Shown: piece by piece, positions 37,249-58,183 of the stretch
How the letters are laid out: every line of letters begins with the position of its first letter
How positions within the stretch are numbered: the first letter of the stretch is position 1
Source: an uncultured Cytophagia bacterium
GTDB taxonomy: Bacteria; Zhuqueibacterota; Zhuqueibacteria; Oceanimicrobiales; Oceanimicrobiaceae
Reading direction: 5' to 3'
DNA length: 64,000 bases
Assembly (NCBI GenBank): GCA_964539665.1
Contig: CAZIKB010000003.1
Location: 60,062-124,061, forward strand
The notes under the pieces: generated by a model
The model's database searches: none
Told to the model about the DNA's origin: nothing
Seen by the model: the letters and a program-made list of their open reading frames with translations, nothing else
Made by a program: the position numbers and the translations under genes

Positions 37249-38628
37249 ATGTCTTTTAAAAAACCAAATATAATTTTAATTATGATAGATTGCGGGCGGG
37301 CTGATCATTTTTCTATTTATAATGATAGTAAAAATACGACTCCAAATTTAAAAAAAATAGCTGCGGAAAGCATGGTTTACAATAATGCTATCTCACCTGC
37401 CGGTTGGACCTTGCCAACCCATTCATCAATATTTACTGGTGTTTATCCCTCGCAACACGGCGCCCACAATGAAAATCATCAACTCTCAAATGAATACCCA
37501 ACGCTTGCAGAATTGCTTGTTGAACAAGGGTACAAGACTTTTGGAATCTGTACTATAGATTGGCTAAGTCAGGCTACCGGAGTAATTAGAGGATTCCAGG
37601 AATTTGATAACTTACATTTTAGTAAGTCAAAATTAATATTGAAAAGAATGTTACAATACCCCATAATTGGCGGGAAGGACTGCTGGGGATATGAAACCAA
37701 CAGAAAAGCGAAAAAATGGCTAAAACAAAATGATTCAGGCAATCCATTTTTTATGTATCTCCATTATAATGAATTGCATCTGCCTTACAACATACCTGAA
37801 AAAATATTGAAGAATTTTTTACCGGAAGATGTGACGGTTGCTAAGGCATTAAAAATTAATCAAGATGCCAAAAAATATTATGCCGGTATTGCAAAAATGA
37901 GTGCAGAGGATTTTAAAATACATAAAGCATTGTATGACGCCGGATTGAAATACACTGACGATTTAATAGGGCAATTGATTGATTTCTTAAGAAAGCAAGA
38001 TATTCTTGATAACACAATTCTTGTCATCACAAGTGACCACGGTGAAAGCTTAGGCGAACACGGACATTTTGACCATTATTACGTCCTTTATGAATCCCTG
38101 CTCCATGTGCCTTTAATGGTTAGATATTTCCCTGTTTTTGGCTCGGGAAAGTCAGATGCGCTTGTGCAAACTATTGATCTATATCCAACTTTATTACAAT
38201 TAGCCGGTGTACCAATTGAAAAATATGAACATCACGCTGCGTTAACCCTTCCCCCGGTTGGAAAAAATAAAGGGCGAGAATATGCGTATGCTGAACGCTT
38301 TCAGGATTTAAAAGGTTTAAAGGAAAGCTTCAAAAATCATGATTTATCACATTTGGAAAAATATGAGCAGGAACGTCTGACTGTTATTAGAGGCGAGCGA
38401 TATAAGCTTATTTATTCTATGCAAGGTCGTCATGAATTGTTCGATTTACACAATGATCCCCGCGAAGAAGAAAATATATTATTAAAAGAACCGGGAATAG
38501 CAGAAATCATGATGGATAAACTAAAAGAGTGGCAATCATCATTTCCATTAAAACAAACAGAAGGAGAAGAAGCATATTTTGATAAAGAGGCTGTTGAACG
38601 TCTAAAAGCATTGGGATATCTTGGTTAA
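37249..38628 (+). CDS. Sulfatase-family (alkaline phosphatase superfamily) protein with Thr at the nucleophile position and a C-terminal ...ERLKALGYLG tail
   Basis: It has a metal-binding IDCGRADH motif, a nucleophile region AGWTLPTHSSIFTGVYP (T-x-P-T-H instead of C-x-P-S-R) and a SDHGESLGEHGH motif. The C-terminus reads VERLKALGYLG. Confidence 0.65.
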   Translation: MSFKKPNIILIMIDCGRADHFSIYNDSKNTTPNLKKIAAESMVYNNAISPAGWTLPTHSSIFTGVYPSQHGAHNENHQLSNEYPTLAELLVEQGYKTFGICTIDWLSQATGVIRGFQEFDNLHFSKSKLILKRMLQYPIIGGKDCWGYETNRKAKKWLKQNDSGNPFFMYLHYNELHLPYNIPEKILKNFLPEDVTVAKALKINQDAKKYYAGIAKMSAEDFKIHKALYDAGLKYTDDLIGQLIDFLRKQDILDNTILVITSDHGESLGEHGHFDHYYVLYESLLHVPLMVRYFPVFGSGKSDALVQTIDLYPTLLQLAGVPIEKYEHHAALTLPPVGKNKGREYAYAERFQDLKGLKESFKNHDLSHLEKYEQERLTVIRGERYKLIYSMQGRHELFDLHNDPREEENILLKEPGIAEIMMDKLKEWQSSFPLKQTEGEEAYFDKEAVERLKALGYLG

Positions 38629-38684
38629 TTAATTATTACTTATCGACTAATCGATCCATGTATTAAAATTTAGCGAAGGTTAAA

Positions 38685-40538
38685 ATGTTTAATTACAATT
38701 CTGATAAAGTTAAATTACCTTATACATTTGCTAAAATGTGCAAAATTAAGGTACAATATTGTTTGGCGATAATGCCATTGTTTATTTTGTTTAATACGTC
38801 TTTTGCTCAAAGCCCGAAGCACAACTATCCTTTAATTGGATGGCAGACTTTTGGTGGAGCGGTCGATGATTTCTATGCTCGATTTGATCTTTTAGTAACA
38901 AAATCTTCAAGTAATGGTTTTGTAAAAAGATTAAAAGGCATAAATCCTGATATGTTAATCGTCTCGACTACAGACTGGAATACCGGGCGAGACATTGATA
39001 ACATGCCAGAGGAATGGTGGTTACGTGATTCAAATGGAAACGTGAAAATAATTTATGGCGGCTTTAAAATGGCGAACCTATCCGATCTTTGCCCAAAAGC
39101 TACACGGGGTGCATTTAGTGGGATGACCTATTCTGAGTATTTGCCTGTATTTTTGTCTAGTAGAATAGATTTAACCTATTTTGATGGAGTCGGTACTAAT
39201 GGCGTCTGGGGAAAGGATGGAATGGAATGGAATTGGAATCGTAATGAATGGTCTGATATTGACATTGATAATAACGGTGTCAATGATCATGATGAACACT
39301 CAAAAGATTGGTTCTTGACTCATTGGCAAGGTGGATTAGATGTCCTCATGTCAAAATTGCGTCAAATGATTGGACCGAATAAACTCCTACTGATAAATAG
39401 CGGGACCTCGCACTCCTGGGGCTGGGAGGAGTCCAATGGCATTATTGATGAAAAATTAACATCGTACTCTGACACTAAATTTAATTTAAATTATTATAAA
39501 GCCATTAAAAATGTGTCACAAAAACCTTTCATTACAGTTGCAGACGGTTTACCTTTTTATGGTAATCCAAATGTGCCGGATGAATCAAAAAATGATTATA
39601 TTGGTATGCGTTTTGGACTTGTAACCTGTATGTTTAATGATATATATTTCAGTTTTCAGAATATCCGGGCCAATGAACATTACTGGAGTTATTGGTATGA
39701 TGAATTTGATGTTAATCTCGGCAAACCAATTGGCCGCCCTTCTAAAATAAGAGAAGGACTTTGGGTGCGATTTTTTGATAACGGTGTTGCAATAGCGAGT
39801 ACAGATGGCTATTCTCAGGTTGTAACTGATTCTGATTTAAAAGGATTCTCTGAATATAGCGGACCTTATTATAGGTTCCTGGGAAGCCAAAATCCATCTT
39901 TCAACAACGGTCAAATATTCGATAGAGTAGAACTTGATGGACACATTCAGAGCTCAAGTAGAATTTTTGGTGATGGCATTTTATTGTTAAAAGAGCCAAC
40001 AGTTGTTGTTGCTGATATTATCATTGATAACAGTGATGCCGGTACTTCCCCATCAAGTTCTAAGGCTAAATTGAAAAATGGTTTTGTTCTTCAAACAGAC
40101 TGTAAATCTGGCTATGATTTTTACAAGTTACGCTGCTCAAGCTGGCAGGAAGTATACGGCTATGCCTATGCCCCGTCAGGAAACGGCGAAGCAATTTATC
40201 GCCCCAATATCGGCGTGGCGGGCGAGTATGAAGTATTCGAGTGGCATGGTAAAATGGATGGCGTTAATATGGCCACAAATGCAGTGTACAATATACTGCA
40301 TTCGAATGGACAGGATAGCAAACGAGTTAATCAATCTAATAACACCGGCCACTGGAATAGCCTGGGAGTTTATCAATTCAGAAAGGGCAGCGACCTTAAT
40401 GTGACAATAAAGGCACAAGGCGCGGATGGTTATGTAATGGCAGACGCTATTAAGTTTGTTAATCTTAGTTCAAAAGTAGAGCCTCCAGCGAATCTGTTGC
40501 CTCCGATTGGTGTTCGTGTGCAACAAAATAATAACTAA
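38685..40538 (+). CDS. Secreted glycoside-hydrolase-like protein with a C-terminal beta-sandwich (carbohydrate-binding-like) domain
   Basis: The protein is 617 aa with a signal peptide (MPLFILFNTSFAQS). The C-terminal domain contains ADAIKFV. Confidence 0.35.
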   Translation: MFNYNSDKVKLPYTFAKMCKIKVQYCLAIMPLFILFNTSFAQSPKHNYPLIGWQTFGGAVDDFYARFDLLVTKSSSNGFVKRLKGINPDMLIVSTTDWNTGRDIDNMPEEWWLRDSNGNVKIIYGGFKMANLSDLCPKATRGAFSGMTYSEYLPVFLSSRIDLTYFDGVGTNGVWGKDGMEWNWNRNEWSDIDIDNNGVNDHDEHSKDWFLTHWQGGLDVLMSKLRQMIGPNKLLLINSGTSHSWGWEESNGIIDEKLTSYSDTKFNLNYYKAIKNVSQKPFITVADGLPFYGNPNVPDESKNDYIGMRFGLVTCMFNDIYFSFQNIRANEHYWSYWYDEFDVNLGKPIGRPSKIREGLWVRFFDNGVAIASTDGYSQVVTDSDLKGFSEYSGPYYRFLGSQNPSFNNGQIFDRVELDGHIQSSSRIFGDGILLLKEPTVVVADIIIDNSDAGTSPSSSKAKLKNGFVLQTDCKSGYDFYKLRCSSWQEVYGYAYAPSGNGEAIYRPNIGVAGEYEVFEWHGKMDGVNMATNAVYNILHSNGQDSKRVNQSNNTGHWNSLGVYQFRKGSDLNVTIKAQGADGYVMADAIKFVNLSSKVEPPANLLPPIGVRVQQNNN

Positions 40539-41766
40539 TACCTCAAAAGGCAGAGCAATCAATTTGGTAATTAGCTACTTCAGTTATGCCTGGGATATAA
40601 ACGGTATTTCAGCCGGTGCGGCCATTAAAGCAAAAGAGTTTATCAACGCGATCGAAAAACACGGTCATACCGTCCATCTTGAATGGCGCATGCAACAACC
40701 AGGAAATGAACCGGATATTTCCACCAAAATTAAAGAAAGAATTAAACCATATTTGCAGAAGTATCTGCGTGAATCTCGTGTGCTGTTAAGTAATTTGGGA
40801 CACCTGAAAAATGAACACAAGATTCTTAAACAGCAAAAACCTGATATTTTTTTTCCACGTCTTGAATACGGAAATATCTCTTGTTTTTTACTATCTAAAT
40901 GGTTGAATATTCCAACAGTTGTAGAGGTTGATTGTCCGCCAACTCATGAATGGGAAACATTTTATGCTCAGGATGCACTAAAATTTGGTGATTTGTCGTT
41001 AAAATTGGAAATAGTAACTTTGAAGCAGGCTGATGCTGTTATAGTTCAATCTAATCAGTTGATGAGTTACTATGAGTCGCTGGGCGTGTCAAAAGAGAAA
41101 ATATATGTGATTCCGAATGCGGCTGATATAAAAAAATTTCAACCGCGTGAGAAGTATGAGTCTGTTGTTTCTGAATATAAGTTGCAGGATAAAATAGTAA
41201 TTGGTTGGATAGGCGCCGGCTATGCCTGGACCGGCATTGATGTTGTCATAGATATGGCTAAAAAATTAATGCGAAATTACCCTTCAGTGCGATTTTTAAT
41301 GGTAGGCAGTAAACACAATATGGACGTTTTTCAGACACATTTTAATTCCAAAGATTTTGAGGACAGAGTAATTTTACCTGGCTTTGTACCGCATGAAAAA
41401 ATGCCTGATTATCTTTCATGTATGGATATTGTGTTGGCGCCGTATCCAAAACTTGACTTTTTCTACGCATCATCCATGAAACTTTTTGAATATATGGCAG
41501 CCGGAAAAGCAATTGTAGCTACCCGCATCGGTCAGATGGCAGAGGTAATTCAGGATGGAATAAATGGATTCTTATTTGAGCCTGATTTGTCCAGTGAGTT
41601 GTATGAAAAGGTGGAATTATTAGTCACATCCGAAGCGCTGCGTAAGAAGATATCTCAAAATGCACGGTACGATGCTGAACGAAAGTGGAATTGGGACCAA
41701 GTCGGAAATAAAATGATTCAGGTATTTGAAGAGGTTTTAACTAAGCGAAATGCACATCGCTGTTGA
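40507..41766 (+). CDS. GT4 glycosyltransferase
   Basis: It has a TTG start that overlaps the upstream gene, so the true start is uncertain. The C-domain has FVPHEKMPDYL...FEYMAAGKAIVAT and an E-x7-E motif. Length is 419 aa. Confidence 0.65.
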   Translation: MVFVCNKIITNTSKGRAINLVISYFSYAWDINGISAGAAIKAKEFINAIEKHGHTVHLEWRMQQPGNEPDISTKIKERIKPYLQKYLRESRVLLSNLGHLKNEHKILKQQKPDIFFPRLEYGNISCFLLSKWLNIPTVVEVDCPPTHEWETFYAQDALKFGDLSLKLEIVTLKQADAVIVQSNQLMSYYESLGVSKEKIYVIPNAADIKKFQPREKYESVVSEYKLQDKIVIGWIGAGYAWTGIDVVIDMAKKLMRNYPSVRFLMVGSKHNMDVFQTHFNSKDFEDRVILPGFVPHEKMPDYLSCMDIVLAPYPKLDFFYASSMKLFEYMAAGKAIVATRIGQMAEVIQDGINGFLFEPDLSSELYEKVELLVTSEALRKKISQNARYDAERKWNWDQVGNKMIQVFEEVLTKRNAHRC

Positions 41767-41922
41767 AGAAGTAACCTTCCGATGGTTTATTAATATATAA
41801 ATTCCTGTATGTTGAGTTTAATTGATTTACACACTACATACAGTAAGTCAATAATCCTTCTGAAGGTTTTCAGCACTTAATCAACAAAGTCATGCACGTT
41901 TGAAAATTACCAGTAAAATTCT

Positions 41923-43731
41923 ATGATTAAAAAAATATTAATCTTTGTAGCAGTTACAAGTATCCTTTTAGCCGTGGTTTTATGGTTTGGTCAAAGACCT
42001 ATTTTAGAGTGGGTCAAAAAGAATCCGGATCTTTATAGGGTACTTCAAAAGGGAAATGCGAAATTTAAATCAATCACGAATCAAACTAATAGCTTGGGCG
42101 ATTTAAATAAAAATGAAAGCATGACTGAAGCACATTTGGTGATAGACTACAATAAGTCACTCGGCCAATTTAACAAATTTTGGCGTGGATTTGGAATAGA
42201 TTCTTTTAATAATGGAATTTTGTTACCGTTCAATTATGAATTTTTAAAAACAGCCGGCCAATCAAAGGATGACAGTCAACTTTTCACTCACGTTAATGTC
42301 AAAGGAATATTTGCTGACCCTCCAAATAACAAAGTCAATGATATTGGAGGTCATGTCTACAAAGAAAATGCCGATGGAAAAGTAGAATATAATTGGAAAA
42401 TTGTTGACAAAGTTTTTGATAGTATATTAGAAAACAATTTAAAACCAGTGATTTCTTTAAGCTACATGCCCGAGGACCTGGCTTCAAATGTGAATAAAAA
42501 AAATCCATGGAATCATGCTGTAGTTTCACCGCCAACAGACTACAATAAGTGGCGGGACCTGGTTTATGCCACGATTGAACATTTACAGGATAGGTACGGT
42601 ACGGATGAGATAAAGGATTGGTATTTTGAAGTTTGGAACGAACCAGACATGCCTCAATTTTTTTGGAAAAAACATCCTGATCGCAAACGATATCCCAAAA
42701 GAGGGGATAATTTAGAATATTTTAAACTGTATGATTATACTATCGATGGTGCCATTGACGCCGAACCTGATTTACAAATTGGCGGGCCTGCAATAGCCGG
42801 TGATATTTTTTTATTTATTAATGAATGGTTTTCGCATTGCCTGAATGCAAAAAATTACAAAACCGGCAAAACAGGTACAAGGATTGATTTTTTATCACGC
42901 CATTGTTACGGTAATATTGAAAATAGAATTTTACCCGGTATTATGCAATTTGTGGGTAAGTCTAAAGAAAACGGTCTGGAGATTTTTAATAGATCAAAAT
43001 TTCTGATTTCTGAAGCAGGGCCGAGTACCGTGCCTAAAAAATGGCTAAATACTCGCTATGTCGCTGCCTGGATTGTAAAATTGATTGACGGTATTTGTTA
43101 TCTGGGCGACCAGAAAGGGGAAGACTATATTCCTGATTTGCTGTTATTCTGGACAAAACCGATCCCAGCGAATTTTGATACCCATTTTGGTTTGATGACT
43201 GCTCTGGGTAATAAATGGCACCCATCATCAAACGCGTTGATTAAAAGACCCGCATTCAACGCTTTTGATTCTTTAAATAAAATGGGACCGGTTAGATTGG
43301 TAGTAGAAGGTACACAATTTGGCGACCCAATTCATGCTTTGGCAGCAAAAAGTCAAAACGAGTCAGTTCAGATATTATTATATCATTTAAGGGAAGATGA
43401 TTATTTTAATGAAAACTCACGCAACTACCCGGCTTATTTAAAAATAAATAATTTACCCGAAGGGAAATACAGATCTGATATGTATGTAATTGATGAATCC
43501 CGCAGCAACGGCTTTACACTTTGGAAGAGCCTTGGCAGACCAGCTAAGCCAGGCAAAGCACAATTGCGACAACTACAACAAAACGATGATTTAGAGCTGG
43601 TCGAAACCAAATTTGAATCCATCAATAATGAAAGAAAATATGAAAAATTGATTAATTTGCAAAATAATAGTGTAGCTTTATTAATTTTATCAAAGGTCAA
43701 TTCTGTTGGTAACCTTAATGCAGCAAATTAA
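41923..43731 (+). CDS. Membrane-anchored GH39-like glycoside hydrolase (PslG-like)
   Basis: It has an N-terminal TM anchor, and the WYFEVWNEPD motif is the GH39/GH-A catalytic acid-base NEP signature. Length is 602 aa. Confidence 0.6.
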   Translation: MIKKILIFVAVTSILLAVVLWFGQRPILEWVKKNPDLYRVLQKGNAKFKSITNQTNSLGDLNKNESMTEAHLVIDYNKSLGQFNKFWRGFGIDSFNNGILLPFNYEFLKTAGQSKDDSQLFTHVNVKGIFADPPNNKVNDIGGHVYKENADGKVEYNWKIVDKVFDSILENNLKPVISLSYMPEDLASNVNKKNPWNHAVVSPPTDYNKWRDLVYATIEHLQDRYGTDEIKDWYFEVWNEPDMPQFFWKKHPDRKRYPKRGDNLEYFKLYDYTIDGAIDAEPDLQIGGPAIAGDIFLFINEWFSHCLNAKNYKTGKTGTRIDFLSRHCYGNIENRILPGIMQFVGKSKENGLEIFNRSKFLISEAGPSTVPKKWLNTRYVAAWIVKLIDGICYLGDQKGEDYIPDLLLFWTKPIPANFDTHFGLMTALGNKWHPSSNALIKRPAFNAFDSLNKMGPVRLVVEGTQFGDPIHALAAKSQNESVQILLYHLREDDYFNENSRNYPAYLKINNLPEGKYRSDMYVIDESRSNGFTLWKSLGRPAKPGKAQLRQLQQNDDLELVETKFESINNERKYEKLINLQNNSVALLILSKVNSVGNLNAAN

Positions 43732-43767: not shown

Positions 43768-45645
43768 TTGAATTCAAATTATTCCAAACAAAATAGCGTA
43801 ATTCATCAAATTAAGATTAGCTTTTTGGGGGGACTTTTGACCGGTATAATTATCGGTGGCTCTCTGGCAATTTATAACACCTGGTTTTTAAATTACTATA
43901 TTCAGAAAGGGCTAACTCATTTTGTCATTGAAATATTCAGTGAATATATCATTCAAGCCACTTTGGCTGCAACTTTGATCTTTTTATTTTTATTACCTTT
44001 TGTGGCTTTTTTTAGTCAAACCATTTCAGAAATTAGGGCCATTCGTCTGGCAAGATTCACATTAATGCTGGTCGGAATAATCTGGGTAATTGGCGGCTAT
44101 CAAATAAACAAATCTATCTGGTTCCCACCGATAGCTTCTGCGAAAGGCATTTTAGGAAACATGTTTTACAGTTTCATCTGTCTGGGATTGGCTTTTCTTT
44201 TATACAAAATAATGATGGCATTTCGTTTAAAACTGCCTTTGCCATTTGCTGGATTATTGCATAAATTATACAATGGCAAATTATTGAGTGCAATTGCGTC
44301 AATTTTTATTGTTGCGAATGGATGTACCATTTATCATCTCGCAAACCATAAACCTAATAGTCCCAATGTTGTAATTCTTTCGATTGATACGTTACGTGCT
44401 GATCATCTTGGTTGTTATGGTTATGAAAGGAATACGAGCCCAACTATTGATAAATTAGCCAGCGAGGGCGTTCAATTCTCTAATTGTTATGCTCAACGTG
44501 GTCTAACCTGGCCGTCACTAACATCAATAATGACTGCCATGTATCCGAAAACTCATGGAGTCAGACGCAATCAGGTTCCGCTTGACGGCAAAAATATTAC
44601 CATCGCCGAAATTCTTAAAAATGAAGGGTACAAGACCGGTGCATTTCTTGCAAATTATTATTTTTCACCAAATCGTGGTTTCGACACCAAAATGGGTGGT
44701 GAAATTGGCGATCTGGATTATGCCATCACGGGGCAAGCTTTAGGTTGGCTGAATGGGATTAATCCTCAGGAAGACAATTTTTTCTTGTGGATTCACTATA
44801 AAAATCCTCATTTACCTTATGAACCGCCTGAACCGTTTACAAATATGTTTGACTCAACTTATACCGGCCAGTACGATGGTTCAAGGAAGTCAGTCAATTC
44901 GATTTATGTGAATAAAACAGAACTCGAAGAAAGAGATCTTGACCACATTGTTGCACTTTATGATGCTGAGATAAGATCTACAGACAGCTATATTGAACTT
45001 ATCCTGCAAAAGCTCAAAGCCATGAATGTGTATGATAATACAATTATTGTCTTCATCTCTGACCATGGTGAAGAGCTTTATGAGCGTAATTATTATTTTG
45101 ATCATGCTTGCTCAATCTACGATGGTGTTTTGCGAATTCCTTTGGTCATAAAATATTCGGATGTTATTCCGGCTGGGAAAATAATGGAAAATCAGATTGA
45201 AAGTATTGATATCACCCCAACCATCCTCAATATTTTAAAAGTTCCTTTACGTGATGAATTTGAAGGTCGCAGTATATTTGGAATGATATTAGATGATTCT
45301 TCTGATGTATGGTTTCCTTCTTTTGCTGACCGCTCAATTGTCATAAATTCCATTCGAACACCGCAGTGGAAATATATTTATAATCCGGAAGATTACCATG
45401 CAGTGTGTGTAACTGGCGCCGTAGAGGATGATGGAGAAGGTTATGATGTTGAAATTGAAGAACTTTATAATATACAAACCGATCCGTCTGAGCAAGTAAA
45501 TCTGGCTGAGCAATTTCCGAATATTGCTAAAGAATTACGCGCAGAGATCATAAACTGGCTCAATACCAACAAGAAAGTACATAAAGAATATACACTGTCC
45601 AAAGAAGCAGAAAAAAGACTGCGTGCCCTGGGATACGTCAAATGA
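43768..45645 (+). CDS. Polytopic membrane protein with a sulfatase-family (LtaS/EptA-like) domain, Thr nucleophile and a C-terminal ...KRLRALGYVK tail
   Basis: It has about 5 N-terminal TM helices. The sulfatase domain has a VVILSIDTLRADH motif, a nucleophile region GLTWPSLTSIMTAMYP (T-W-P-S-L instead of C-x-P-S-R) and an ISDHGEEL motif. Length is 625 aa with a TTG start. Confidence 0.65.
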   Translation: MNSNYSKQNSVIHQIKISFLGGLLTGIIIGGSLAIYNTWFLNYYIQKGLTHFVIEIFSEYIIQATLAATLIFLFLLPFVAFFSQTISEIRAIRLARFTLMLVGIIWVIGGYQINKSIWFPPIASAKGILGNMFYSFICLGLAFLLYKIMMAFRLKLPLPFAGLLHKLYNGKLLSAIASIFIVANGCTIYHLANHKPNSPNVVILSIDTLRADHLGCYGYERNTSPTIDKLASEGVQFSNCYAQRGLTWPSLTSIMTAMYPKTHGVRRNQVPLDGKNITIAEILKNEGYKTGAFLANYYFSPNRGFDTKMGGEIGDLDYAITGQALGWLNGINPQEDNFFLWIHYKNPHLPYEPPEPFTNMFDSTYTGQYDGSRKSVNSIYVNKTELEERDLDHIVALYDAEIRSTDSYIELILQKLKAMNVYDNTIIVFISDHGEELYERNYYFDHACSIYDGVLRIPLVIKYSDVIPAGKIMENQIESIDITPTILNILKVPLRDEFEGRSIFGMILDDSSDVWFPSFADRSIVINSIRTPQWKYIYNPEDYHAVCVTGAVEDDGEGYDVEIEELYNIQTDPSEQVNLAEQFPNIAKELRAEIINWLNTNKKVHKEYTLSKEAEKRLRALGYVK

Positions 45646-45854: not shown

Positions 45855-47513
45855 ATGAACAAAACAAATCATAGAGGAATTTTATTCTTTTTGAAGATAG
45901 GTATAATATCCGGTTTAATGTATGGCTTAATTTTAGGCTTGGTGAGATTATTAAGTCATGACGCTGTAAGAGCCTACTATTCAGCAAATTTTACAGATGT
46001 CCTGTTTTCATATACACAGGATTTTCTTAATCAAACCGTCATAATAACTTTGCTCGTATTTATTGTAATTGAAATGACTTTCTATTTTTTAAACAAATTA
46101 TTTGCAACCGCAGATAATAAGATAGTAAAATATTCAAGAATGATCGCGATTAATGGATTTTTCTTTTTATTAATTTTCTATTATTTAAATATTCAACACT
46201 GGTTTCCATCGATGTTGTCTAATAGCGCTTTATTGTACTACATAATTATTCTCGCGGGCAATGCTTTATTACTGTTATTATTCAATCGAATCAGAAACAA
46301 AATAGTTGTTCATGATTCTTTTAAATCCATTAAATTGCCAGTAATTACTGTTATCGTTTTATTATTGTTTAGCAATGTATTTAGTTATTTTCAAAAGAGT
46401 AAATTAAAAGCTGAAACACCGATAAATGTCATAATGATTGTGATTGATGCCCTGCGCGCCGGGCAGTTAGGTTGTTACGGATATGATCTGCCTACAACTC
46501 CGAACATCGATGCATTTGCTCAAGAAAGCCTTAGATTCACGAGCAGCTTTTCACCGAGCAACCATACTAAACCTTCCACAGCATCGCTTTTTACTTCGCT
46601 CTATCCTTCGCAACATAACGTTATTCTAGGAAATAGGTCAAATAATTCCGGGGAGTATTTCTCAGATGTTTTAGATGAATCATTCAAAACGATTGCAGAA
46701 TATTTGTATGAAGCAGATTATAACACGGCCGGGTTTCTAAACCAGGGTCAATTGCGTAAATATTTGGGATTTGCACAGGGATTTATCTATTATAATTCCC
46801 GGTTAGGAAGGGCGCCGCAAATTAATCGTGAATTTTTGCGTTGGCTGCCCATGAATAAACATAGAAAATTTTTTGCATACATACATTATTTGGATGTACA
46901 CGGCCCTTATGATCCGCCTGAGAAATATCGAAAAATATTTAATGTGAATGAGCTGACCAGCGAAATTCCGGAGCGTGCTAAAAATTGGCGAAAATTTAAA
47001 AAAGACTTTGAGAGCGGTGCTTTAGAATTTACGCCTGAGGACCTGGAAAATTTGAAAGCGCTTTACAATGCTGAACTTAAATCCGTTGATGATCAGCTTG
47101 GAATACTTTTTCAGGAATTGAAAAGGCAAGGAGTATATGAAAACAGTCTAATCATAATCACGGCTGACCACGGTGAGTCGTTTGTTGAACATGGCGAAAT
47201 AGATCATGGCTCCACTTTGTTCGATGAAGTTTTACGCGTACCTTTAATAATCCATTATCCTAACCAGGAAAAAACCGGCGTAGTAGATGCAAATGTGCAA
47301 ACTCTTGATTTACTGCCGACCATTTTAGATTATTTAAATATTACGCCTTCAAAAGACTTGATGGGACAAAGTATTTTAAAGTATTCAAATGGCAGCATTG
47401 AGCACGATGAATATCCTATTTTCTGTGAAAGAAATAATCTGGTCTCATTGATCTTTGGTAAAGATAAATATATTTTTGATAAAATAGCCAGACGGGGGAA
47501 CTCTATAACTTAG
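45855..47513 (+). CDS. Membrane-anchored sulfatase-family protein (third copy); the reading frame is interrupted at a GGGGG run and the ORF continues to 47691 in another frame
   Basis: It has a VIMIVIDALRAG motif, a nucleophile region NHTKPSTASLFTSLYP (Thr, no CxPxR) and an ITADHGESF motif. The annotated frame stops at 47513 after ...ARRGNSIT. The +2 frame from the G-run encodes GELYNLEIDPGERN...IEKLKSLGYIK*, ending at 47691. Confidence 0.55.
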   Translation: MNKTNHRGILFFLKIGIISGLMYGLILGLVRLLSHDAVRAYYSANFTDVLFSYTQDFLNQTVIITLLVFIVIEMTFYFLNKLFATADNKIVKYSRMIAINGFFFLLIFYYLNIQHWFPSMLSNSALLYYIIILAGNALLLLLFNRIRNKIVVHDSFKSIKLPVITVIVLLLFSNVFSYFQKSKLKAETPINVIMIVIDALRAGQLGCYGYDLPTTPNIDAFAQESLRFTSSFSPSNHTKPSTASLFTSLYPSQHNVILGNRSNNSGEYFSDVLDESFKTIAEYLYEADYNTAGFLNQGQLRKYLGFAQGFIYYNSRLGRAPQINREFLRWLPMNKHRKFFAYIHYLDVHGPYDPPEKYRKIFNVNELTSEIPERAKNWRKFKKDFESGALEFTPEDLENLKALYNAELKSVDDQLGILFQELKRQGVYENSLIIITADHGESFVEHGEIDHGSTLFDEVLRVPLIIHYPNQEKTGVVDANVQTLDLLPTILDYLNITPSKDLMGQSILKYSNGSIEHDEYPIFCERNNLVSLIFGKDKYIFDKIARRGNSIT

Positions 47514-47833
47514 AAATAGATCCGGGAGAGCGGAATAAAATTAATTCCCGGAATAGTGAATTAGAGCAGAAAATGAAAGCTATGGTTTTAGAATGGAGTG
47601 AGGCCATGAAACTCGTTAGTAAAAAGTCAGAAGGTACTAAATTAGATAAAGAAACCATCGAAAAACTTAAAAGTCTGGGATATATCAAATAAGACTGTTG
47701 AATTAAGGTCAAGTGCCATCTAATATTCTCAGTCGGGCGAATTCCATGGTTGGAAAAACGCATTCACTTCATTATTAGCCACGTGGCAGAGTGATTCCAA
47801 ATCAACGTACACTTCAGAATAAACCTAAATGAA

Positions 47834-48290: not shown

Positions 48291-48590
48291 ATGTCGGAAC
48301 AGAACCGAAAAAGAGTAATTGGTAAGGCAATTACTTATAGAGGACTTGGCACATTAGTTACTATATCAGTAATATATATTTTCACTGGAAAATTGGCGCT
48401 TTCATTTGGTGTCGGACTTGTTGAGGTCGTTGCTAAAATGCTTTTTTATTACCTGCATGAACGACTTTGGGAGAAAATATCATGGGGTAAAGATAAACAT
48501 CCTCTTGCTGGAATCCCTGTTAAAAAGGAGCTTGAACCTGAAGACAAAGTATTGCTTGAAGAGAGATTAAAAGAGCTTGGATATTTATAA
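48291..48590 (+). CDS. DUF2061-family small membrane protein with a C-terminal ...EERLKELGYL tail
   Basis: It has the RVIGKAITYRGLGT...YYLHERLW motif (DUF2061). Length is 99 aa, with an AGGAAA RBS. Confidence 0.6.
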   Translation: MSEQNRKRVIGKAITYRGLGTLVTISVIYIFTGKLALSFGVGLVEVVAKMLFYYLHERLWEKISWGKDKHPLAGIPVKKELEPEDKVLLEERLKELGYL

Positions 48591-48611: not shown

Positions 48612-50795
48612 ATGATGAATCGAAAATACTCGTTAATTACTTTACTCATTTTATTGGTATTCTTAATTATCGATGCACAGCCTGCTTTTGCATATATCGG
48701 CCCCGGCGCCGGTTTTGCATTTTTAACTTCATTTGCAATGCTATTTGCCAGTTTCTTTATGGCTTTTTTTACATTGCTAACCTGGCCTTTCCGGGTTTTT
48801 TTACGGTTTTTCAAAAGAAGAAAAGCTTTAGCCAGAGCTAAAACAGATCGGGTTGTGATTCTGGGCCTTGACGGTCTTGACCCAACTATCACAGAACGCA
48901 TGCTACAGGAAGGTAAATTACCAAATTTGAAAAAACTTAAAGAGCAAGGTTCTTACAAACATTTACAGACCACTTATCCAGCTCTCTCGCCAGTTGCCTG
49001 GTCAGCCTTTGCAACTGGAGTTAATCCTGGTCGACATAACATTTTTGATTTTCTTTCACGCAATCGATTCAACTATTTACCCGAATTATCCTCTTCAAAA
49101 GTTGGGTCTCCAAATCGAAAAATATCCCTGGGAAAATTCGAAATCCCGCTTGGCAAACCGATTGTTCGATTATTACGTCGCAGCAAAAGCTTCTGGACAA
49201 TATTGGGAGAGAACGGTATTTTCAGTCATGTACTTCGTGTACCAATCACTTTCCCACCTGAAAAATTTAACGGAGCGTTACTTTCAGCGATGTGTACTCC
49301 GGACCTCTGGGGAACGCAAGGCACTTTTTCCTACTTCACGACTGATACAACTAATAAAAAATTTAAAGAGGGAGGAGAGACTGCAGTTGTGAAATGGGTA
49401 GGCGATAGAATTGAGGGATTTATTAAAGGCCCTGAGAACTCCATTACTAAAAAGCATGAGTCGATGAAGCTCCCTTTTGAAGTAAAGATTTTGAGTGATG
49501 ACGAAATAGAACTGATAATAGAAAAAAAGAAATACAACCTAAAAAAGAAAAAATACACCGATTGGATTGAATTGAAATTTAAAGCCGGAATGGGGATCAA
49601 AGTACATGGTATTGCACGATTTTACCTGCTTGAAACCAATCCAGTTTTTAGATTGTATATGACGCCCATCAATATCGATCCGGAAAAGCCAGCGCTGCCA
49701 ATTTCTTACCCTTATTTCTATTCCGTTTATCTTTCTAAGTTATTCGGGAAATTCGCGACATTGGGTTTAGCGGAAGATACCTGGGCTTTGAACGAGGGCG
49801 TTCTTGATGAGGAAGCTTTTTTAGAGCAGGCATATCTAATTCATGAAGAACGTGAAAAACAATTTTTTCATACTTTAAGCAAAACCAGAAAAGGTTTGTG
49901 TTCAGTGGTATTTGATGCCAGTGATCGAATTCAGCACATGTTTTTCCGAACGCTTGAAGATGACCATCCTGCCAACCGAGGCAAAGAAACTGAAAAATAT
50001 AAAAATGTTATTGCCGATATGTATGAGCAAATGGATGACCTCGTTGGTAGAACCATGGCTAAAATAAATAAAGATGAGGTTTTTATTGTGCTCTCTGATC
50101 ATGGTTTTAAATCATTCAGACGCGGTATAAACCTGAATTCCTGGTTAAAAGCTAATGGTTATCTAAAGCTGAAAGACGGTAGGGAAGAGAGTGGGGAATT
50201 TTTTCAGGGTGTTGATTGGGAAAATACAAAAGCCTATGCATTCGGACTGACGGGTATTTACATCAATGTTAAAGGCCGGGAAAAGAACGGCATTGTCGCA
50301 CCAGGTGAAGAATTAAAAACACTCAAAGATGAGTTGATTGCTAAACTTTCCGGGATGTTAGATCCTGAAACCGGGGAAGTTGCCATTATCGAGATGTTTG
50401 ATAATAGTGAAATTTACAAGGGACCTTATACTAACAATGGACCCGACTTGATTAGTGGCTACAATAGCGGCTATCGAATTTCATGGAATGGCGCAACCGG
50501 GAATGTCAATGAGCAAATTTTTGAAGACAACGTTAAAGCCTGGAGCGGCGATCATTGTGTTGACCCGAGGCTTGTCCCCGGGGTGATTTTTAGCAACCAA
50601 AAAATTATGGCCGCTAAACCAGGTTTGATGGATATAGCGCCAACAGTTCTTGAATTATTTGGAATAACTAAACCAGGCTATATGGAAGGCCAGGATATCT
50701 TAAGTAGTGAACCAGAAGAGACAGCAAAAGATGAAGATATTCCCACCATAGTGCCAACAGTAAAAAAAACGGAGGTGGCTTCGGTCAATGAATAA
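48612..50795 (+). CDS. Membrane-anchored alkaline-phosphatase-superfamily protein (type I phosphodiesterase/nucleotide pyrophosphatase-like)
   Basis: It has two N-terminal hydrophobic segments followed by a KRRK cluster. Motifs include LGLDGLDP, a nucleophile region ALSPVAWSAFATGVNPGRHNIFDF and a later LSDHGF. Length is 727 aa. Confidence 0.6.
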   Translation: MMNRKYSLITLLILLVFLIIDAQPAFAYIGPGAGFAFLTSFAMLFASFFMAFFTLLTWPFRVFLRFFKRRKALARAKTDRVVILGLDGLDPTITERMLQEGKLPNLKKLKEQGSYKHLQTTYPALSPVAWSAFATGVNPGRHNIFDFLSRNRFNYLPELSSSKVGSPNRKISLGKFEIPLGKPIVRLLRRSKSFWTILGENGIFSHVLRVPITFPPEKFNGALLSAMCTPDLWGTQGTFSYFTTDTTNKKFKEGGETAVVKWVGDRIEGFIKGPENSITKKHESMKLPFEVKILSDDEIELIIEKKKYNLKKKKYTDWIELKFKAGMGIKVHGIARFYLLETNPVFRLYMTPINIDPEKPALPISYPYFYSVYLSKLFGKFATLGLAEDTWALNEGVLDEEAFLEQAYLIHEEREKQFFHTLSKTRKGLCSVVFDASDRIQHMFFRTLEDDHPANRGKETEKYKNVIADMYEQMDDLVGRTMAKINKDEVFIVLSDHGFKSFRRGINLNSWLKANGYLKLKDGREESGEFFQGVDWENTKAYAFGLTGIYINVKGREKNGIVAPGEELKTLKDELIAKLSGMLDPETGEVAIIEMFDNSEIYKGPYTNNGPDLISGYNSGYRISWNGATGNVNEQIFEDNVKAWSGDHCVDPRLVPGVIFSNQKIMAAKPGLMDIAPTVLELFGITKPGYMEGQDILSSEPEETAKDEDIPTIVPTVKKTEVASVNE

Positions 50796-52782
50796 GATTA
50801 AAGTTGTATTTGGTATAATAGCTATCCTATTTTTAGTGTCATTGATTAGCTTATCTGTTTTCTGGGGATGCAAAAAAAGCAATGCAAGCGCAATTGAAAA
50901 AAAAGTGATTGTTATTGGCTTTGATGGTATGGATCCAAGACTTTTGTCAAAATATATGAGTGAGGATCGACTTCCAAATTTTACTAAATTAGCTGAAACG
51001 GGCGATTATAAACCGCTTGGTACAAGTATTCCTCCACAGAGTCCGGTTGCCTGGTCAAATTTCATAACAGGTATGAATCCTGGCGGACATGGCATATTTG
51101 ATTTCCTTCATCGTGATCCAAATACAATGCTGCCACTCTCATCTACATCAAAAACGGAAGAGTCTGGCAAATCAATAAAGATCGGCAAATGGGTAATTCC
51201 ATTATCGGGAGGGAAAGTAGTGAATCTACGTAAAGGGCAGGCCTTCTGGGAGAAACTTGAAGATTCAGGCGTCCCAACGACAATTTTCAAAATACCATCA
51301 AATTTTCCACCGGTAAAAACAGACGGCAAAGCTTTGAGTGGTATGGGTACTCCTGATTTACAGGGTACATTTGGTACGTTTTCTTATTATACGGACGACC
51401 CTCCGCCAAATCGCGACGATATTTCCGGCGGTGTGGTTTATCCCGTCAAAATACTAAACAATGAAGTAGAAGCTCAATTAACAGGTCCAGCAAATACATT
51501 TTTAGAAGATGCCCCGAATGCTACTATTCCGTTTAAAGTGTGGAGTGATCCCGAAAATCCTGTAGTAAAAATATCAGTGCAGGATCACCAGATTTTGTTG
51601 AAAGAGAAAGAGTGGAGTGACTGGATTCAGGTGAAATTTGATATTATTCCTGTTCTGGAATCTGTAACTGGCATCTGTAGATTCTATCTGAAAGAAGTAC
51701 GACCGCATTTCAAATTATATGTTACTCCGATAAACATTGATCCTTCAAATCCAGCATTACCCATTTCAACACCTGATGATTATGCAAAAGAACTGTACGA
51801 CCACTGCGGATACTTTTATACGCAAGGCATGCCTGAGGATACAAAAGCGTTGTCCTGGAATGTATTTGATCATGATGATTTCCTGAAACAAGGCTTGAAT
51901 GTACTTGATGAACGATTACGTCTTTTCAATTATGTGTTTGACACGTTTGAGCAAGGTCTGCTGTTTTTTTATTTTTCAACTACCGATTTAAATGGACACA
52001 TGTATTATAATATGATTGATCCTGAACATCCGGGGTATGATGCAAAACAAGCGCAAAAATATGGTGACGTTATGAGTAAGTTATACGAAAGCGCTGATAA
52101 AGCAGTTGGCCACGTACTCGAGCGAATAGATGAAAACACTACACTTATAGTCATGTCAGATCATGGATTTGCACCGTTCAGACGCGCTGTGCATTTAAAT
52201 ACCTGGCTAAAAAATGAAGGATACATTACTTTAATTGATGAATCAAAGCAAGCCGAAAATGAATACTTTCAGAATGTCAATTGGAGCCGAACGCAAGCTT
52301 ATGGATTAGGTTTCAATGGGCTTTATGTAAATTTAAGAGGTCGGGAATCTTATGGTTTTGTTGCTCGACGGGAAAAGAAAGCCCTTTTGAATGAAATTTC
52401 CGAGAAGCTTTTAGCTCTACGCGATCCCAAAGATAATACAAGAATTATCGAACGGGTTTATCTGGCTGAAGAAATTTATTCTGAGCAATATTTAGAAAAT
52501 GCACCTGATCTCATTGTCGGTTACAACCGTGGATACAGAGCTTCATGGGAAACGACAATTGGTAACTTTCCACTGGAATGGATTTCGGACAATATGGATC
52601 CCTGGAGCGGTGATCATTGTATGGCAGCAGAGCTTGTACCTGGTGTAATTTTATCAAATAAAAAAATAGACGCTCAAAATCCTAAACTTTATGATATGGC
52701 CCCTACAATTCTTAACGAATTTAACGTTGAAAAGAGTGACGACATGGTGGGGCAAGTGATATTCAACAACATAGTAAATTAA
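50788..52782 (+). CDS. Alkaline-phosphatase-superfamily PDE/NPP-like protein (paralog 2)
   Basis: It has IGFDGMDP, PQSPVAWSNFITGMNPGGHGIFDF and MSDHGF motifs, with an N-terminal TM or lipobox-like FWGC. Length is 664 aa, and it overlaps the upstream gene by 8 nt. Confidence 0.6.
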   Translation: MNKIKVVFGIIAILFLVSLISLSVFWGCKKSNASAIEKKVIVIGFDGMDPRLLSKYMSEDRLPNFTKLAETGDYKPLGTSIPPQSPVAWSNFITGMNPGGHGIFDFLHRDPNTMLPLSSTSKTEESGKSIKIGKWVIPLSGGKVVNLRKGQAFWEKLEDSGVPTTIFKIPSNFPPVKTDGKALSGMGTPDLQGTFGTFSYYTDDPPPNRDDISGGVVYPVKILNNEVEAQLTGPANTFLEDAPNATIPFKVWSDPENPVVKISVQDHQILLKEKEWSDWIQVKFDIIPVLESVTGICRFYLKEVRPHFKLYVTPINIDPSNPALPISTPDDYAKELYDHCGYFYTQGMPEDTKALSWNVFDHDDFLKQGLNVLDERLRLFNYVFDTFEQGLLFFYFSTTDLNGHMYYNMIDPEHPGYDAKQAQKYGDVMSKLYESADKAVGHVLERIDENTTLIVMSDHGFAPFRRAVHLNTWLKNEGYITLIDESKQAENEYFQNVNWSRTQAYGLGFNGLYVNLRGRESYGFVARREKKALLNEISEKLLALRDPKDNTRIIERVYLAEEIYSEQYLENAPDLIVGYNRGYRASWETTIGNFPLEWISDNMDPWSGDHCMAAELVPGVILSNKKIDAQNPKLYDMAPTILNEFNVEKSDDMVGQVIFNNIVN

Positions 52783-52795
52783 AAAGGAGTTTTAT

Positions 52796-52987
52796 ATGTT
52801 AGGTCCCAAAATTAAATTAGAAAAAGAATTATATGATCGAATTAAAAAATTTTCTGAAATCGCTGGTTATTCTTCTGTTGAAGAATTTGTAACTCATGTG
52901 CTGGAAAAAGAACTGTCGACAATAGATGACTCTGAATCAGAAGAAGAAGTGAAAAAACGATTACAGGGATTGGGATATTTGTCTTAA
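52796..52987 (+). CDS. Small protein (63 aa) with a ribbon-helix-helix-like N-terminus, an acidic linker and a C-terminal ...KKRLQGLGYLS tail
   Basis: It has a strong AGGAG RBS. The N-terminal sequence KIKLEKELYDRIKKFSEIAGYSSVEEFVTHVLEKEL resembles CopG/Arc RHH proteins. Confidence 0.45.
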   Translation: MLGPKIKLEKELYDRIKKFSEIAGYSSVEEFVTHVLEKELSTIDDSESEEEVKKRLQGLGYLS

Positions 52988-53038
52988 AATATTTCATAAT
53001 TCCAATAATACCATAAATCCACGGAGTTAGTATAAAAT

Positions 53039-53869
53039 ATGTTGAATATATTGAACTATTTTTTTAATATAATTTTTAATGTTATATTTTTTCCATTTAA
53101 AAATATGGATCCGATCTGGGGCATGTTAGTGGTTTCGTTTGTTACAGGGATTGTGATGTTATTTGTTTTTAAGGCAACTTCCGATCAGATTGGTATTAAA
53201 AAAGCAAAAAATTTGGTAAAGGGCCATTTCCTGGCCATTCGACTCTATCGGGACGATATCACACTTATGTTTGTTACCATGAAAAATATTATCATGAGTA
53301 ACCTGCTTTACATGAAAAAATCTTTTCGCCCCATGCTTTTTCTAATAATTCCTGTGGGTGTCATTTTAATTCACCTTGGCACCAGGTATGAATTCCGGCC
53401 ATTCAAAGTTGGGGAGACAATTATTGTTTCCATACGTCTGGATGACAAAATTCAGGATCTGAATCTCAACAATGTTGTTTTTGAACTTCCAGATGGTTTA
53501 ACCTCCGACATGCCGCCCGTTCGAATTCAGCAATTACGGGAAATTAACTGGCGTATCAAAGCTGAAAAGCCAGGCATCTATGATCTGATTTTTAAATACA
53601 ACAACAGTAATGTAACAAAGCGACTTGAAGTCAGAGATTCATTGATACCGCTTTCGAAAGAAATTGCCCAGAACAGTTTATCTGTGACTCTAATGAATCC
53701 CGGGGAATCGAGTTTGCCCGGATCTTCATTCGCTTCTCACATTGCAATCGGTTACCCCAAAAGAGATTTCAAATTCTTAGGATTCAGTTTCCATTGGTTA
53801 ATTGCTTTCTTTGTTTTTAGTCTAATTGCGGCATTTTCATTTAAAGGCGTGCTTGGCGTTGAAGTTTAG
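53039..53869 (+). CDS. Hypothetical membrane protein
   Basis: The 276 aa protein has 3-4 predicted TM segments at the N- and C-termini and a central soluble region. Confidence 0.35.
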   Translation: MLNILNYFFNIIFNVIFFPFKNMDPIWGMLVVSFVTGIVMLFVFKATSDQIGIKKAKNLVKGHFLAIRLYRDDITLMFVTMKNIIMSNLLYMKKSFRPMLFLIIPVGVILIHLGTRYEFRPFKVGETIIVSIRLDDKIQDLNLNNVVFELPDGLTSDMPPVRIQQLREINWRIKAEKPGIYDLIFKYNNSNVTKRLEVRDSLIPLSKEIAQNSLSVTLMNPGESSLPGSSFASHIAIGYPKRDFKFLGFSFHWLIAFFVFSLIAAFSFKGVLGVEV

Positions 53870-53938
53870 GAGATAATTATTTTAAAAAAACAATTTGCAT
53901 GTGATAGAAATCTTTTTTAATATGCCGGTTAAAAAGCG

Positions 53939-54775
53939 ATGAGTTATAAATTTTTATCTACTAAAACAAGTCAGGAACATGATTTAGACCAGTGGCAAAA
54001 TCGTAGCCTCGAAGGTGAAATAAAAAGTTTTGAAGGCCGTACATTAGTTCGTATTTTTAATAAATATTTAAACGGAAAAGAAGCGAAAATCCTTGAAGGA
54101 GGTTGCGGATTTGGTGCTTGGTGTGAGTGGTTCCAAAAACAGGGTTATCAAATATTAGGTATTGAATACGATAATAATATAGTAAAAAGAGCCAAAAAAT
54201 ATAAGCCAGATGTAGCCGTTGAATTAGGCGATATCACCGAAATAAAGTACCCGTCCGATAGCTTTGACGCTTATGTATCATTGGGAGTGATTGAACATTT
54301 TGAACATGGTCCAGAGTCTGCCCTGAGAGAAGCCCATCGAATTCTTAAACCAGATGGCATAGCCTTTGTAACTACGCCTTATTTAACAGTAATCCGAAGG
54401 TTTGTTGCTCATCCGGTTCGCAGCTTGTATTTTTTAATTCGAGAGTTTCGTGGAAAATCAAATTATTTTTGGGAATATCGGTTTACAAAAAATGAATTAC
54501 GTTCTTTTCTTGAGAATACTGGCTTTGAAATTATACATGCGGATATCGACGATTATGAGCATAGGATTAAGAATCGCCACATAGGTCTGTGGGCGGATTG
54601 GTTTTTTTTAAGAAGAAAAAATGGTGCAATCTGGGAGTTAAATGGTTTAGGAAAATTTGTGCTCAGAGTTGTCAATCTTTTTCCTGATTCCTGGTACTGC
54701 TCGGGTTTGCATCTGGTTGCAAGGGCAAAAAAGAACGATATCACTGAAAATAGTGAAATTACTAAATCCAAATAA
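53939..54775 (+). CDS. Class I SAM-dependent methyltransferase
   Basis: It has [11 protein letters not shown] (motif I), ILGIEYD and LKPDGIAFV motifs. Length is 278 aa. Confidence 0.7.
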
Positions 54776-54798
54776 TTATAAAATATGAAAGGAATTAC

Positions 54799-57435
54799 AT
54801 GGAATTAATCGCACCTCACGGTGGCAAACTTGTTGATCAGGTTTTACGTGGCGAAGAACGTGAAGCAGCTTTGAACAAAGCTAAGCATCTAAAAAAAATT
54901 GCAATCAACGCAACAGCAATTTCTGATGTAGAACTCATTGCAGTTGGTGCATTCAGCCCATTAACGGGATTTATGAAACAGGCTGATTATGAAAATGTAG
55001 TTACGAATATACGTTTAGCAAATGGCGTGGTCTGGTCGATACCAATAACTTTGTCAGTTACCAGTGAAATTGCTGATGAAGTTAAAATTGACGAAGAAAT
55101 TGTATTAACCAATGATGCCGGATTGCAATTAGCATTATTAAAAGTTGAGGAAAAGTTTACTTACGATAAAACCCGGGAAGCGGAATTTGTATATAAAACA
55201 ACCGAAGAAGCCCATCCTGGCGTTGCCCGGCTTTACAAGCAGGATGATGTGTTATTAGGTGGTGAGATTAGGCTAATCAATCGGGTGCCGGATCAACCAT
55301 TTCCGGATTTTCGACACGATCCTGTTCAGAGTCGGCGTATGTTTGCCAGTCGCGGTTGGAAAAAAATTGTAGGATTTCAAACTCGCAATCCAATACATCG
55401 TGCGCATGAATACATACAGAAATGTGCATTGGAAATTGTCGATGGTTTATTTTTACATCCATTAGTTGGGGAGACTAAAAAGGATGATATTCCCGCGGAT
55501 ATTCGCATGCAAAGTTATGAGAGCCTGCTGCGAGATTATTATCCGCCAAACCGTACACTTTTAGGGGTATATCCGGCCGCCATGCGCTATGCCGGTCCAA
55601 GAGAGGCTATTTTTCATGCGATTGCGCGAAAGAATTATGGCTGCAGCCATTTTATAGTCGGTCGAGACCATGCCGGGGTTGGTAATTATTATGGAACGTA
55701 TGATGCTCAAAAAATATTCGATGATTTCAAAAAGGAAGAAATAGATATCACACCTTTATTTTTTGATCATACATTTTATTGCAAAAAATGCGGTGCTATT
55801 GTTTCTGACAAAACCTGTCCGCATGATCAATCTGAGCGTTTGATATTAAGTGGCACTCAGGTTCGTGAAATGCTCACTCGCGGGGAAGCGCCACCACCAG
55901 AATTAACCCGCCCGGAAGTGGCGAGTATACTGATCGAAGGTTATCGCAAAGAAGGCAAATCAGTTCAACCAGAAAAAAAACCGGAAGCCAAAAGAGCACC
56001 AGCTAAATCCGAACCAAAGGCAGCGGTTGCAAGGGCGTCTAAAAATGGCAAGCGGAAAGTATTTGTCATCGGCCTTGATTGTGCCACACCCGAATTGATT
56101 TTTGACCAGTACAAATCGGAGCTTCCAAACTTTCGGAAATTAATGGAAAGCGGTCTTTACGGAGAATTAGAAAGCAGCATTCCGCCAATTACCGTTCCAG
56201 CCTGGTCGTCCATGATGAGCAGTAAAGATCCGGGGCAGTTGGGCTTTTACGACTTTCGTAATCGTGCAGATTACTCCTATGAAAGCATGTATATTGCCTC
56301 ATCCAGGTCAGTAAAAACGGATCGGGTCTGGGATATTCTCTCTCGTTCAGGAAAACAGGTATCGGTTGTGGGAGTGCCTCAAACCTATCCTATCCAGCCC
56401 GTTAAAGGAAACATGATTTCTTGCTTTCTGACTCCTTCTACTGAAAGCCAGTACACCTATCCTGAAGAACTTAAATCTGAAATCCAGGAGTTGGTGGGAG
56501 ACTACATGATTGATGTGCCTAATTTTAGAACCGAGAACAAGGATTTGCTTTTGCGGCAAATTTATGAAATGACCGAAAAGCGTTTTCGGCTTGTTCGCTA
56601 TCTAATGCGGAAAAAACCGTGGGACTTTTTTATGTTTGTCGAAATGGGTACAGATCGCATTCATCACGGATTCTGGAAGTATATGGATACCGGCCATAAA
56701 AAATATGAACCCGGTAATCCTTATGAAAACTCAATAAAGGAATATTATAAATATCTGGATCGGGAAATCGGCGAGGTACTTGATAACCTTGACGACGATA
56801 CATCCGTTTTGGTGGTTTCAGACCATGGCGCCAAAAAAATGGATGGCGGTATATGCATTAATGAATGGCTCATTGAAAATGGCTATCTTATTTTAAAAGA
56901 GAAACCGGCTTCACTTATGCCACTGGAGAAAGCAGAAATAGACTGGCCCAAAACGAAAGCATGGGGCGCTGGCGGATATTTTGGCCGAATTTTTCTTAAT
57001 GTCCGCGGCCGCGAACCTGAAGGCGCGGTTGCACCTGAAGAGTATGAAACCATTCGGAATGAATTGATTCATAAGCTGGAAAATATAAAGGACGAAAAAG
57101 GCCAGCCATTAACTACCAGAGTTATAAAGCCAAATGAGGTTTATAAGGAAGTAAACAATATTCCTCCGGATTTAATGGTCTATTTTGGTGATTTGAATTG
57201 GCGGTCGGTTGGCAGTGTCGGATTAAATCGAATACACACTTTTGATAAAGAGCTGGGACCTGATGATGCTAACCATTCTCAGCACGGTATTTTTGTCATG
57301 CATGATCCACAAAATCCTGCAAATGGCAAGAGAATTCACGGCATGCAATTGGTTGATGTTGCGCCAACTATTTTAGATTTATTTGGTGACGAAATTCCAA
57401 ATGATATGATCGGTAAAGTTATCAGGAACAAATAA
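54799..57435 (+). CDS. sat: Fusion protein: N-terminal sulfate adenylyltransferase (ATP sulfurylase) and C-terminal alkaline-phosphatase-superfamily PDE/NPP-like domain
   Basis: Residues 1-390 carry the [13 protein letters not shown] and [15 protein letters not shown]-sulfurylase signatures. A Lys/Pro/Ala-rich linker follows. Residues from about 420 have [17 protein letters not shown] and VSDHGAKK motifs homologous to the ORFs at 48612, 50788 and 58183. Total length is 878 aa. Confidence 0.75.
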
Positions 57436-57451
57436 GGCGTTAGAGGAAACA

Positions 57452-57492
57452 CGCTGAGGATATTTGCCACACACTTCCAGGGTGTGTGGCAA
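57452..57492 (+). terminator. Perfect 13-bp stem hairpin (ATTTGCCACACAC / GTGTGTGGCAAAT, 7-nt loop) followed by an AT-rich TTTTAAATT tract; intrinsic terminator or attenuator between the sat fusion and cysC
   Basis: The inverted repeat was read directly at 57452-57484. It starts 17 nt after the stop at 57435. Confidence 0.5.
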
Positions 57493-57559
57493 ATCCAATT
57501 TTAAATTAAAATCAATTAATTAGTTGTAATGATATAAATTTTATGGAGGTTTCAATTTT

Positions 57560-58183
57560 ATGAAGACATCTAAAAAAGCATGTACAATTTGGTTCACGGG
57601 TTTACCTTCCTCTGGAAAATCTACTTTGGCGGAGATGCTGGAAAAGGAGTTAAAAAACCGCGGAGAAAGGGTCGAAATTTTAGATGGCGATGTAGTCCGT
57701 ACGAATTTAAGCAAAGGCTTGACCTTTAGTAAGGAAGATCGGGACATCAATATCCGGAGAATAGGATTTGTTTGTCATTTGTTGACAAGAAATGGTGTGT
57801 TCGCAATTTCTGCAGCAATATCTCCTTATAGAAATATACGAGATGAAAACCGTGCACTCATAGGCAACTTTGTCGAGGTTTTTGTTGATTGTCCACTGGA
57901 TGAATGTATTAAAAGAGATGTAAAAGGTCTTTATAAAAAAGCATTGGCCGGCGAAATAAAGGAATTTACCGGCGTTTCTGATCCTTATGAAGAACCTCTC
58001 AAACCTGAAATTGTGATTGACGCCCACGGAGAAGAACCCAAAGATAGCCTTCAAAAAATACTGGCGAGATTAGTAGAATTAGGTTACTTATCCAATAACG
58101 GTCTTGATACATCTGACAAAGCATATTCTGATGAAGAAGAAGAGGTAGTGAGAAAGCGGCTGAGTGATCTGGGCTATATTTAA
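57560..58183 (+). CDS. cysC: Adenylylsulfate (APS) kinase with a roughly 50-aa C-terminal extension carrying two LGY[IL] tail motifs
   Basis: It has the P-loop [14 protein letters not shown] and the APS-kinase core. The extension reads ...[40 protein letters not shown]. Confidence 0.85.

Follow-up and report, generated by a model that had tools for sequence, protein, structure and literature searches.

The locus examined here, part of a 64-kb stretch of DNA that was analysed whole (the window), raises the question of why proteins that share little else should end in the same short peptide. A sequence-only reading had described six proteins of different folds that share a C-terminal tail, [KR]-L-x-x-L-G-Y-[ILV], and had proposed that it serves as a docking or sorting tag, possibly recognised by one common partner. 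The recurrence of this LGY tail in the window is real, and far beyond chance. A six-frame scan of all 64 kb gives exactly seven matches to L..LGY[ILV], all on the plus strand and each read in the frame of a genuine gene, with the stop codon 0–1 residue past the motif in six of the seven; in the first 37 kb, with ∼30 genes, the motif is absent. From the amino-acid composition of the 46 window ORFs of ≥120 aa, 0.0014 C-terminal LGY motifs would be expected, compared with six observed (Poisson P ∼1e-20). The seven copies are written in differing synonymous codons, indicating selection at the protein level rather than a DNA repeat. We conclude that the tail is a true addition to proteins of a sulfate-activation and sulfation gene module that are in other respects unrelated.

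Three of the carriers have a PF00884 Sulfatase domain. Sulf1 (37249..38628, +) is a soluble sulfatase-fold protein of 459 aa, without signal peptide or transmembrane (TM) segment; it has Thr at the nucleophile position (TLPTH) and bears the tail YFDKEAVERLKALGYLG (38575-38625, +), which ends in ERLKALGYLG before the stop codon. Sulf2 (43768..45645, +; 625 aa) has ∼5 N-terminal TM helices and the nucleophile region TWPSL, and its catalytic domain is predicted to lie outside the cytoplasm, together with its tail, LSKEAEKRLRALGYVK (45595-45642, +; ending KRLRALGYVK and stop). Sulf3 (45855..47692, +), a 5-TM sulfatase-fold protein, has a frameshift near 47484-47491, and its tail, LDKETIEKLKSLGYIK (47642-47689, +; ending EKLKSLGYIK and stop), is in the second frame. 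The frameshift is real, as the ortholog from locus L042 aligns to frame 3 up to 47483 and to frame 2 for 47492-47689. Because these three proteins are paralogous, the tails, although all present, are spread over four folds and not six. The domain assignments themselves are upheld: PF00884 Sulfatase in three proteins, DUF2061, APS_kinase and, by AF2 and Foldseek, the ribbon-helix-helix (RHH) fold.

The DUF2061 protein (48291..48590, +; 99 aa) is a two-TM hairpin with both termini predicted to be cytoplasmic, and its tail is ELEPEDKVLLEERLKELGYL (48528-48587, +; ending ERLKELGYL and stop). The APS kinase CysC (57560..58183, +; 207 aa) comprises, at its C-terminal end, a native helix, a linker and the appended tail. 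Two motif copies had been attributed to an extension of this enzyme; the second is indeed appended (58124-58180, +; ending KRLSDLGYI and stop), but the first (58046-58093, +) corresponds in alignment to the native last helix of APS kinases of known structure, matching the ends ...LVDLKYIE in 5cb6, ...LEHEGYL in 3cr8, ...LDNKGYL in 3uie and the terminal ...AQKLGYL of 8a8h. Upstream lies an ATP sulfurylase fusion (54799..57435, +) with PUA_2, ATP-sulfurylase and alkaline-phosphatase (AP)-superfamily phosphodiesterase-like (PDE-like) domains, and the start of PDE448 (58183..59529, +), a soluble AP-superfamily PDE-like protein, overlaps the CysC stop codon. Both are without the tail. PDE448 is similar to the 447-459-aa PDE-like genes of archaeal Sat/CysC/RHH clusters.

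The remaining carrier, RHH63 (52796..52987, +), is a 63-aa RHH protein with the tail SEEEVKKRLQGLGYLS (52937-52984, +; ending KRLQGLGYLS and stop). No other tail carrier is as conserved or as widespread, and it is a core member (80/80 loci) of the cassette PDE727-PDE664-RHH63-TM276, which is kept in 76–80 of 80 loci. AF2 predicts a strand-helix-helix domain, a short linker and a C-terminal helix, the tail being helical at residues 49–58 in the monomer model (pLDDT 81–87), and Foldseek matches it to NikR, CopG, Arc, omega, ParD, FitA and VapB. Identity to an archaeal RHH protein is 46% for RHH63 and 35% for a second RHH family. The other cassette members have no tail. TM276 (53039..53869, +; 79/80 loci) belongs to the Oxa1/YidC/TMCO1 (DUF106) superfamily of membrane proteins and bears an inserted β domain of ∼125 aa. 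PDE727 (48612..50795, +) and PDE664 (50788..52782, +), each in 76/80 loci, are AP-superfamily (PF01663) paralogs predicted to face opposite compartments. PDE727 has a signal peptide and an AxA|YIGPGAG motif, together with a TM helix and an Arg/Lys cluster, which point to a cytoplasmic catalytic domain and make it a candidate cytoplasmic hub; Sec or Tat lipoprotein signal peptides on its orthologs suggest that PDE664 is periplasmic, and a candidate hub there.

The tie between the tail and sulfation genes extends beyond the window, to 80 bacterial loci and to archaeal loci. When the 80 RHH63-cassette loci, from many phyla and totalling 1.3 Mb, were scanned, the motif lay 0–2 residues from the stop codon in 127 of 135 matches, and six of the eight internal matches were the native CysC helix. 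The ∼1000 other genes in this sequence gave a single chance match. All 47 carriers besides RHH63 are sulfur- or sulfation-linked; 21 are Sulfatase and 13 APS_kinase proteins (three of the latter being Sat-CysC fusions with the native helix as their C-terminus), and the remainder are DUF2061, ASST and second-family RHH proteins. The tail is borne most often by small RHH proteins of two families, whose genes lie within sulfate-activation clusters (with Sat or CysDN, with CysC and with AP-superfamily enzymes) of Archaea and of at least 548 bacterial species. The gene order CysC-RHH-RHH-Sat-DHH-PDE is shared by Thermoprotei (L091) and Nitrososphaerota (L099), and RHH-plus-tail proteins are also found in L093, in the Chloroflexota locus L102 and in the CysDN-type locus L103.

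Co-localisation holds for the RHH63-cassette and archaeal loci but not everywhere. A large family of ∼830-aa periplasmic Thr-type sulfatase-fold lipoproteins carries the tail family-wide, and usually neither an RHH nor a PDE gene lies within 10 kb. Among 80 metagenome loci built around these proteins, RHH is present in 5/80 and a PDE relative in 8/80, and no neighbour is conserved. A dedicated partner encoded in the same locus is therefore not general. A BlaR1-like sensor adjoining a BlaI gene has seven internal motif copies in a non-sulfation context, and a few PDE-like proteins are themselves tail-bearing (P0149, P0186 and L078:18608-19885).

The motif as first described does recur, but the conserved unit is longer than its eight residues. 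The extended consensus, [FYLM]-[STD]-x-[DE]-[DE]...[KR]-L-[KR]-x-L-G-Y-[ILV], describes a doubly capped amphipathic helix of ∼15–20 residues with a net acidic charge (mean −2.3, median −3). It begins with a capping box, in which a hydrophobic residue precedes an S/T/D N-cap and its acidic residues, continues through a core of 10–14 residues with a hydrophobic stripe at −9/−8, −5 and −2 relative to the Tyr, and closes with a Gly-Tyr-hydrophobic C-cap followed by 0–3 further residues. The N-terminal half is acidic and the C-terminal half basic, with Arg/Lys at −6 and −4. The capping residues are conserved, and the same positions are kept across all carriers, including Arg/Lys at −6 and the Tyr, which is invariant in 127/127 tails in the loci and in 330/330 unique tails, with no F, W or H in its place. 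Flexible, mostly acidic linkers join the tail to its unrelated host domains; the earlier reading had noted acidic or Lys-rich linkers.

Compartments were assigned from a simple reading of hydropathy, the positive-inside rule and lipoboxes. On this basis the tails of CysC, the RHH proteins, DUF2061 and Sulf1 are predicted to be cytoplasmic, and those of Sulf2, Sulf3 and most tail-bearing sulfatases elsewhere, which are 5-TM LtaS-like proteins or lipoproteins, to lie outside the cytoplasm. Carriers predicted on both faces of the membrane contradict the idea of one common partner, insofar as this would be a receptor confined to a single compartment.

Literature searches found no description of the LGY tail, and it matches no described sorting signal or curated family in Pfam or NCBIfam, as had been supposed. 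Close to it are the native C-terminal helices of CysC and CysD (5cb6, 3cr8, 3uie, 8a8h, 1zun), which share the [KR]-x-x-x-G-Y-hydrophobic end; those helices are part of a folded domain, whereas the tail is a linker-borne extra module on unrelated folds, and it looks like a copy of them. The predicted fold of RHH63 resembles the RHH antitoxins and regulators (ParD, FitA, RHH-type VapB and MazE, and the CopG/Arc/NikR superfamily), in which a DNA-binding dimer is followed by a flexible linker and a short partner-binding element, an arrangement that is a prediction for RHH63. Unlike these, RHH63 neighbours AP-superfamily enzymes and a YidC-like protein, with no toxin gene, and its tail also occurs on metabolic enzymes and exported proteins. 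The C-terminal Leu-heptad-like helices that, after a linker, join dimers into dimers of dimers (the LacI tetramerisation helix and the Mnt coiled coil) would suit both the RHH carriers and the pairing of RHH genes in the archaeal clusters, but they are not common to the enzymes of the regulated pathway. The encapsulation peptides of bacterial microcompartments (BMC) and the cargo peptides of encapsulins are likewise short terminal elements, either an amphipathic helix or a short motif, borne on flexible linkers and shared by unrelated enzymes of one pathway, which they serve to co-localise; here, however, the locus has no shell gene (BMC-H/P or HK97-fold encapsulin), and some carriers are periplasmic or membrane proteins. 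To our knowledge, the LGY sequence is unrelated to the known consensus sequences of such peptides.

How the tail acts can be considered in several ways. PEP-CTERM, GlyGly-CTERM, LPXTG and the T9SS CTD also recur at the C-termini of several proteins of one polysaccharide-related locus, and the tail's position, in a locus that makes extracellular polysaccharide, could suggest a signal by which dedicated machinery for secretion or anchoring (one of these, or T1SS) exports or sorts its substrates. We regard this as extremely improbable. The ATP-dependent CysC and the DNA-binding-type RHH proteins are among several carriers without signal peptides, only 0–3 residues follow the motif, with neither TM helix nor basic cluster, no NCBIfam sorting-signal model matches, and none of the window ORFs scanned encodes an exosortase, rhombosortase, sortase or T9SS component. 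An amphipathic helix behind a flexible linker could in principle work on both membrane faces, anchoring enzymes to the membrane, like the targeting helices of MinD and FtsA, or to periplasmic peptidoglycan, and keeping them at the envelope, where polysaccharide is made. In keeping with this, helix 1 of PG_binding_2 is weakly matched, below threshold (19.5 bits; cutoff 21.1), but just a third of a PG-binding domain is there, and many carriers lie in the cytoplasm. Surface anchoring is in fact very unlikely, given the negative net charge, a hydrophobic face of only 3–4 Leu/Ile/Val, a mean hydrophobic moment of 0.35 compared with 0.45–0.57 for the MinD and FtsA helices, conservation far above that of known membrane-targeting helices, and the existing membrane anchors of Sulf2, Sulf3 and DUF2061.

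The invariant Tyr, and the proximity of the tail to PAPS-making genes and uncharacterised AP-superfamily enzymes, might instead indicate a degron, or a site at which the AP-superfamily enzymes would, for example, O-sulfate or otherwise modify the Tyr; pathway enzymes and RHH regulators would thereby be jointly controlled by PAPS supply. AP-superfamily transferases such as EptC and PptA are able to modify protein hydroxyls. The Tyr, however, lies within a hydrophobic cap (Leu-Gly before it, Ile/Leu/Val after) and has basic residues at −4 and −6, a setting that does not resemble known sites of Tyr sulfation; the 0–3 variable residues past the motif argue against recognition of a free carboxylate by proteases or PDZ domains, and the module has no protease or known tyrosine sulfotransferase, so that a regulatory role seems improbable. 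Less easily set aside, though still unlikely, is a structural cap intrinsic to each family, in which the tail packs against the domain that bears it, stabilising it as the final helix, and recurs because a helix-Gly-Tyr ending is generally favourable, not through a shared partner. Such endings are ordinary helix caps in unrelated solved proteins, forming the native folded C-termini of APS kinase, CysD (1zun), A. fulgidus malate dehydrogenase (2x0i) and yeast uL13 and also closing the first helix of PG-binding domains, so the motif alone is no proof of a binding function. The ∼830-aa sulfatases, with their family-wide tail and no co-localised partners, and the fairly high pLDDT of the RHH63 tail as a monomer are in keeping with a cap. 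Against it, in CysC a low-complexity linker of 30 residues separates the tail from a native fold that is already complete; the tail occurs on at least four folds with no relation to each other, among them a hairpin of two TM helices and an RHH domain of 40 residues; conservation falls on the same positions in all of them, with Tyr never Phe; and among the RHH63-cassette loci the carriers are confined to sulfation-linked proteins, apart from the one chance match.

On balance, we think that the LGY tail is probably a small protein–protein association module, docking on AP-superfamily hubs or pairing with itself, the helix binding through its hydrophobic stripe and charge pattern. The resemblance of RHH63 to ParD, FitA and VapB, which bind their partners by a C-terminal tail, favours association, and the tail-bearing PDE-like proteins and the seven-copy BlaR1-like sensor count against it. 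As partner we tentatively suggest those AP-superfamily 'Phosphodiest' enzymes that lack a tail of their own but are found with it almost everywhere, a groove on them being the binding site; these would be PDE727, PDE448 and the Sat-PDE fusion facing the cytoplasm and the lipoprotein PDE664 in the periplasm. A second copy of the tail, packed antiparallel with acidic half against basic half to give homo- and hetero-oligomers, is an only slightly less likely candidate. With either partner, the outcome would be clusters of sulfation enzymes on both membrane faces. The binding of a sulfotransferase by PAPS synthase has a precedent in human (PMC6016456). In the Sat-PDE fusion, PAPS synthesis is physically tied to the AP-superfamily PDE-like class of enzyme. 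The RHH proteins, like RHH antitoxins, would place the RHH domain on DNA and the tail on a partner, and could through the same tail couple expression to the state of assembly. The tail may mark the members of an ancient PAPS-based sulfation toolkit, comprising APS kinase, DUF2061, Thr-type sulfatase-fold transferases, ASST-like arylsulfotransferases and the two small RHH families.

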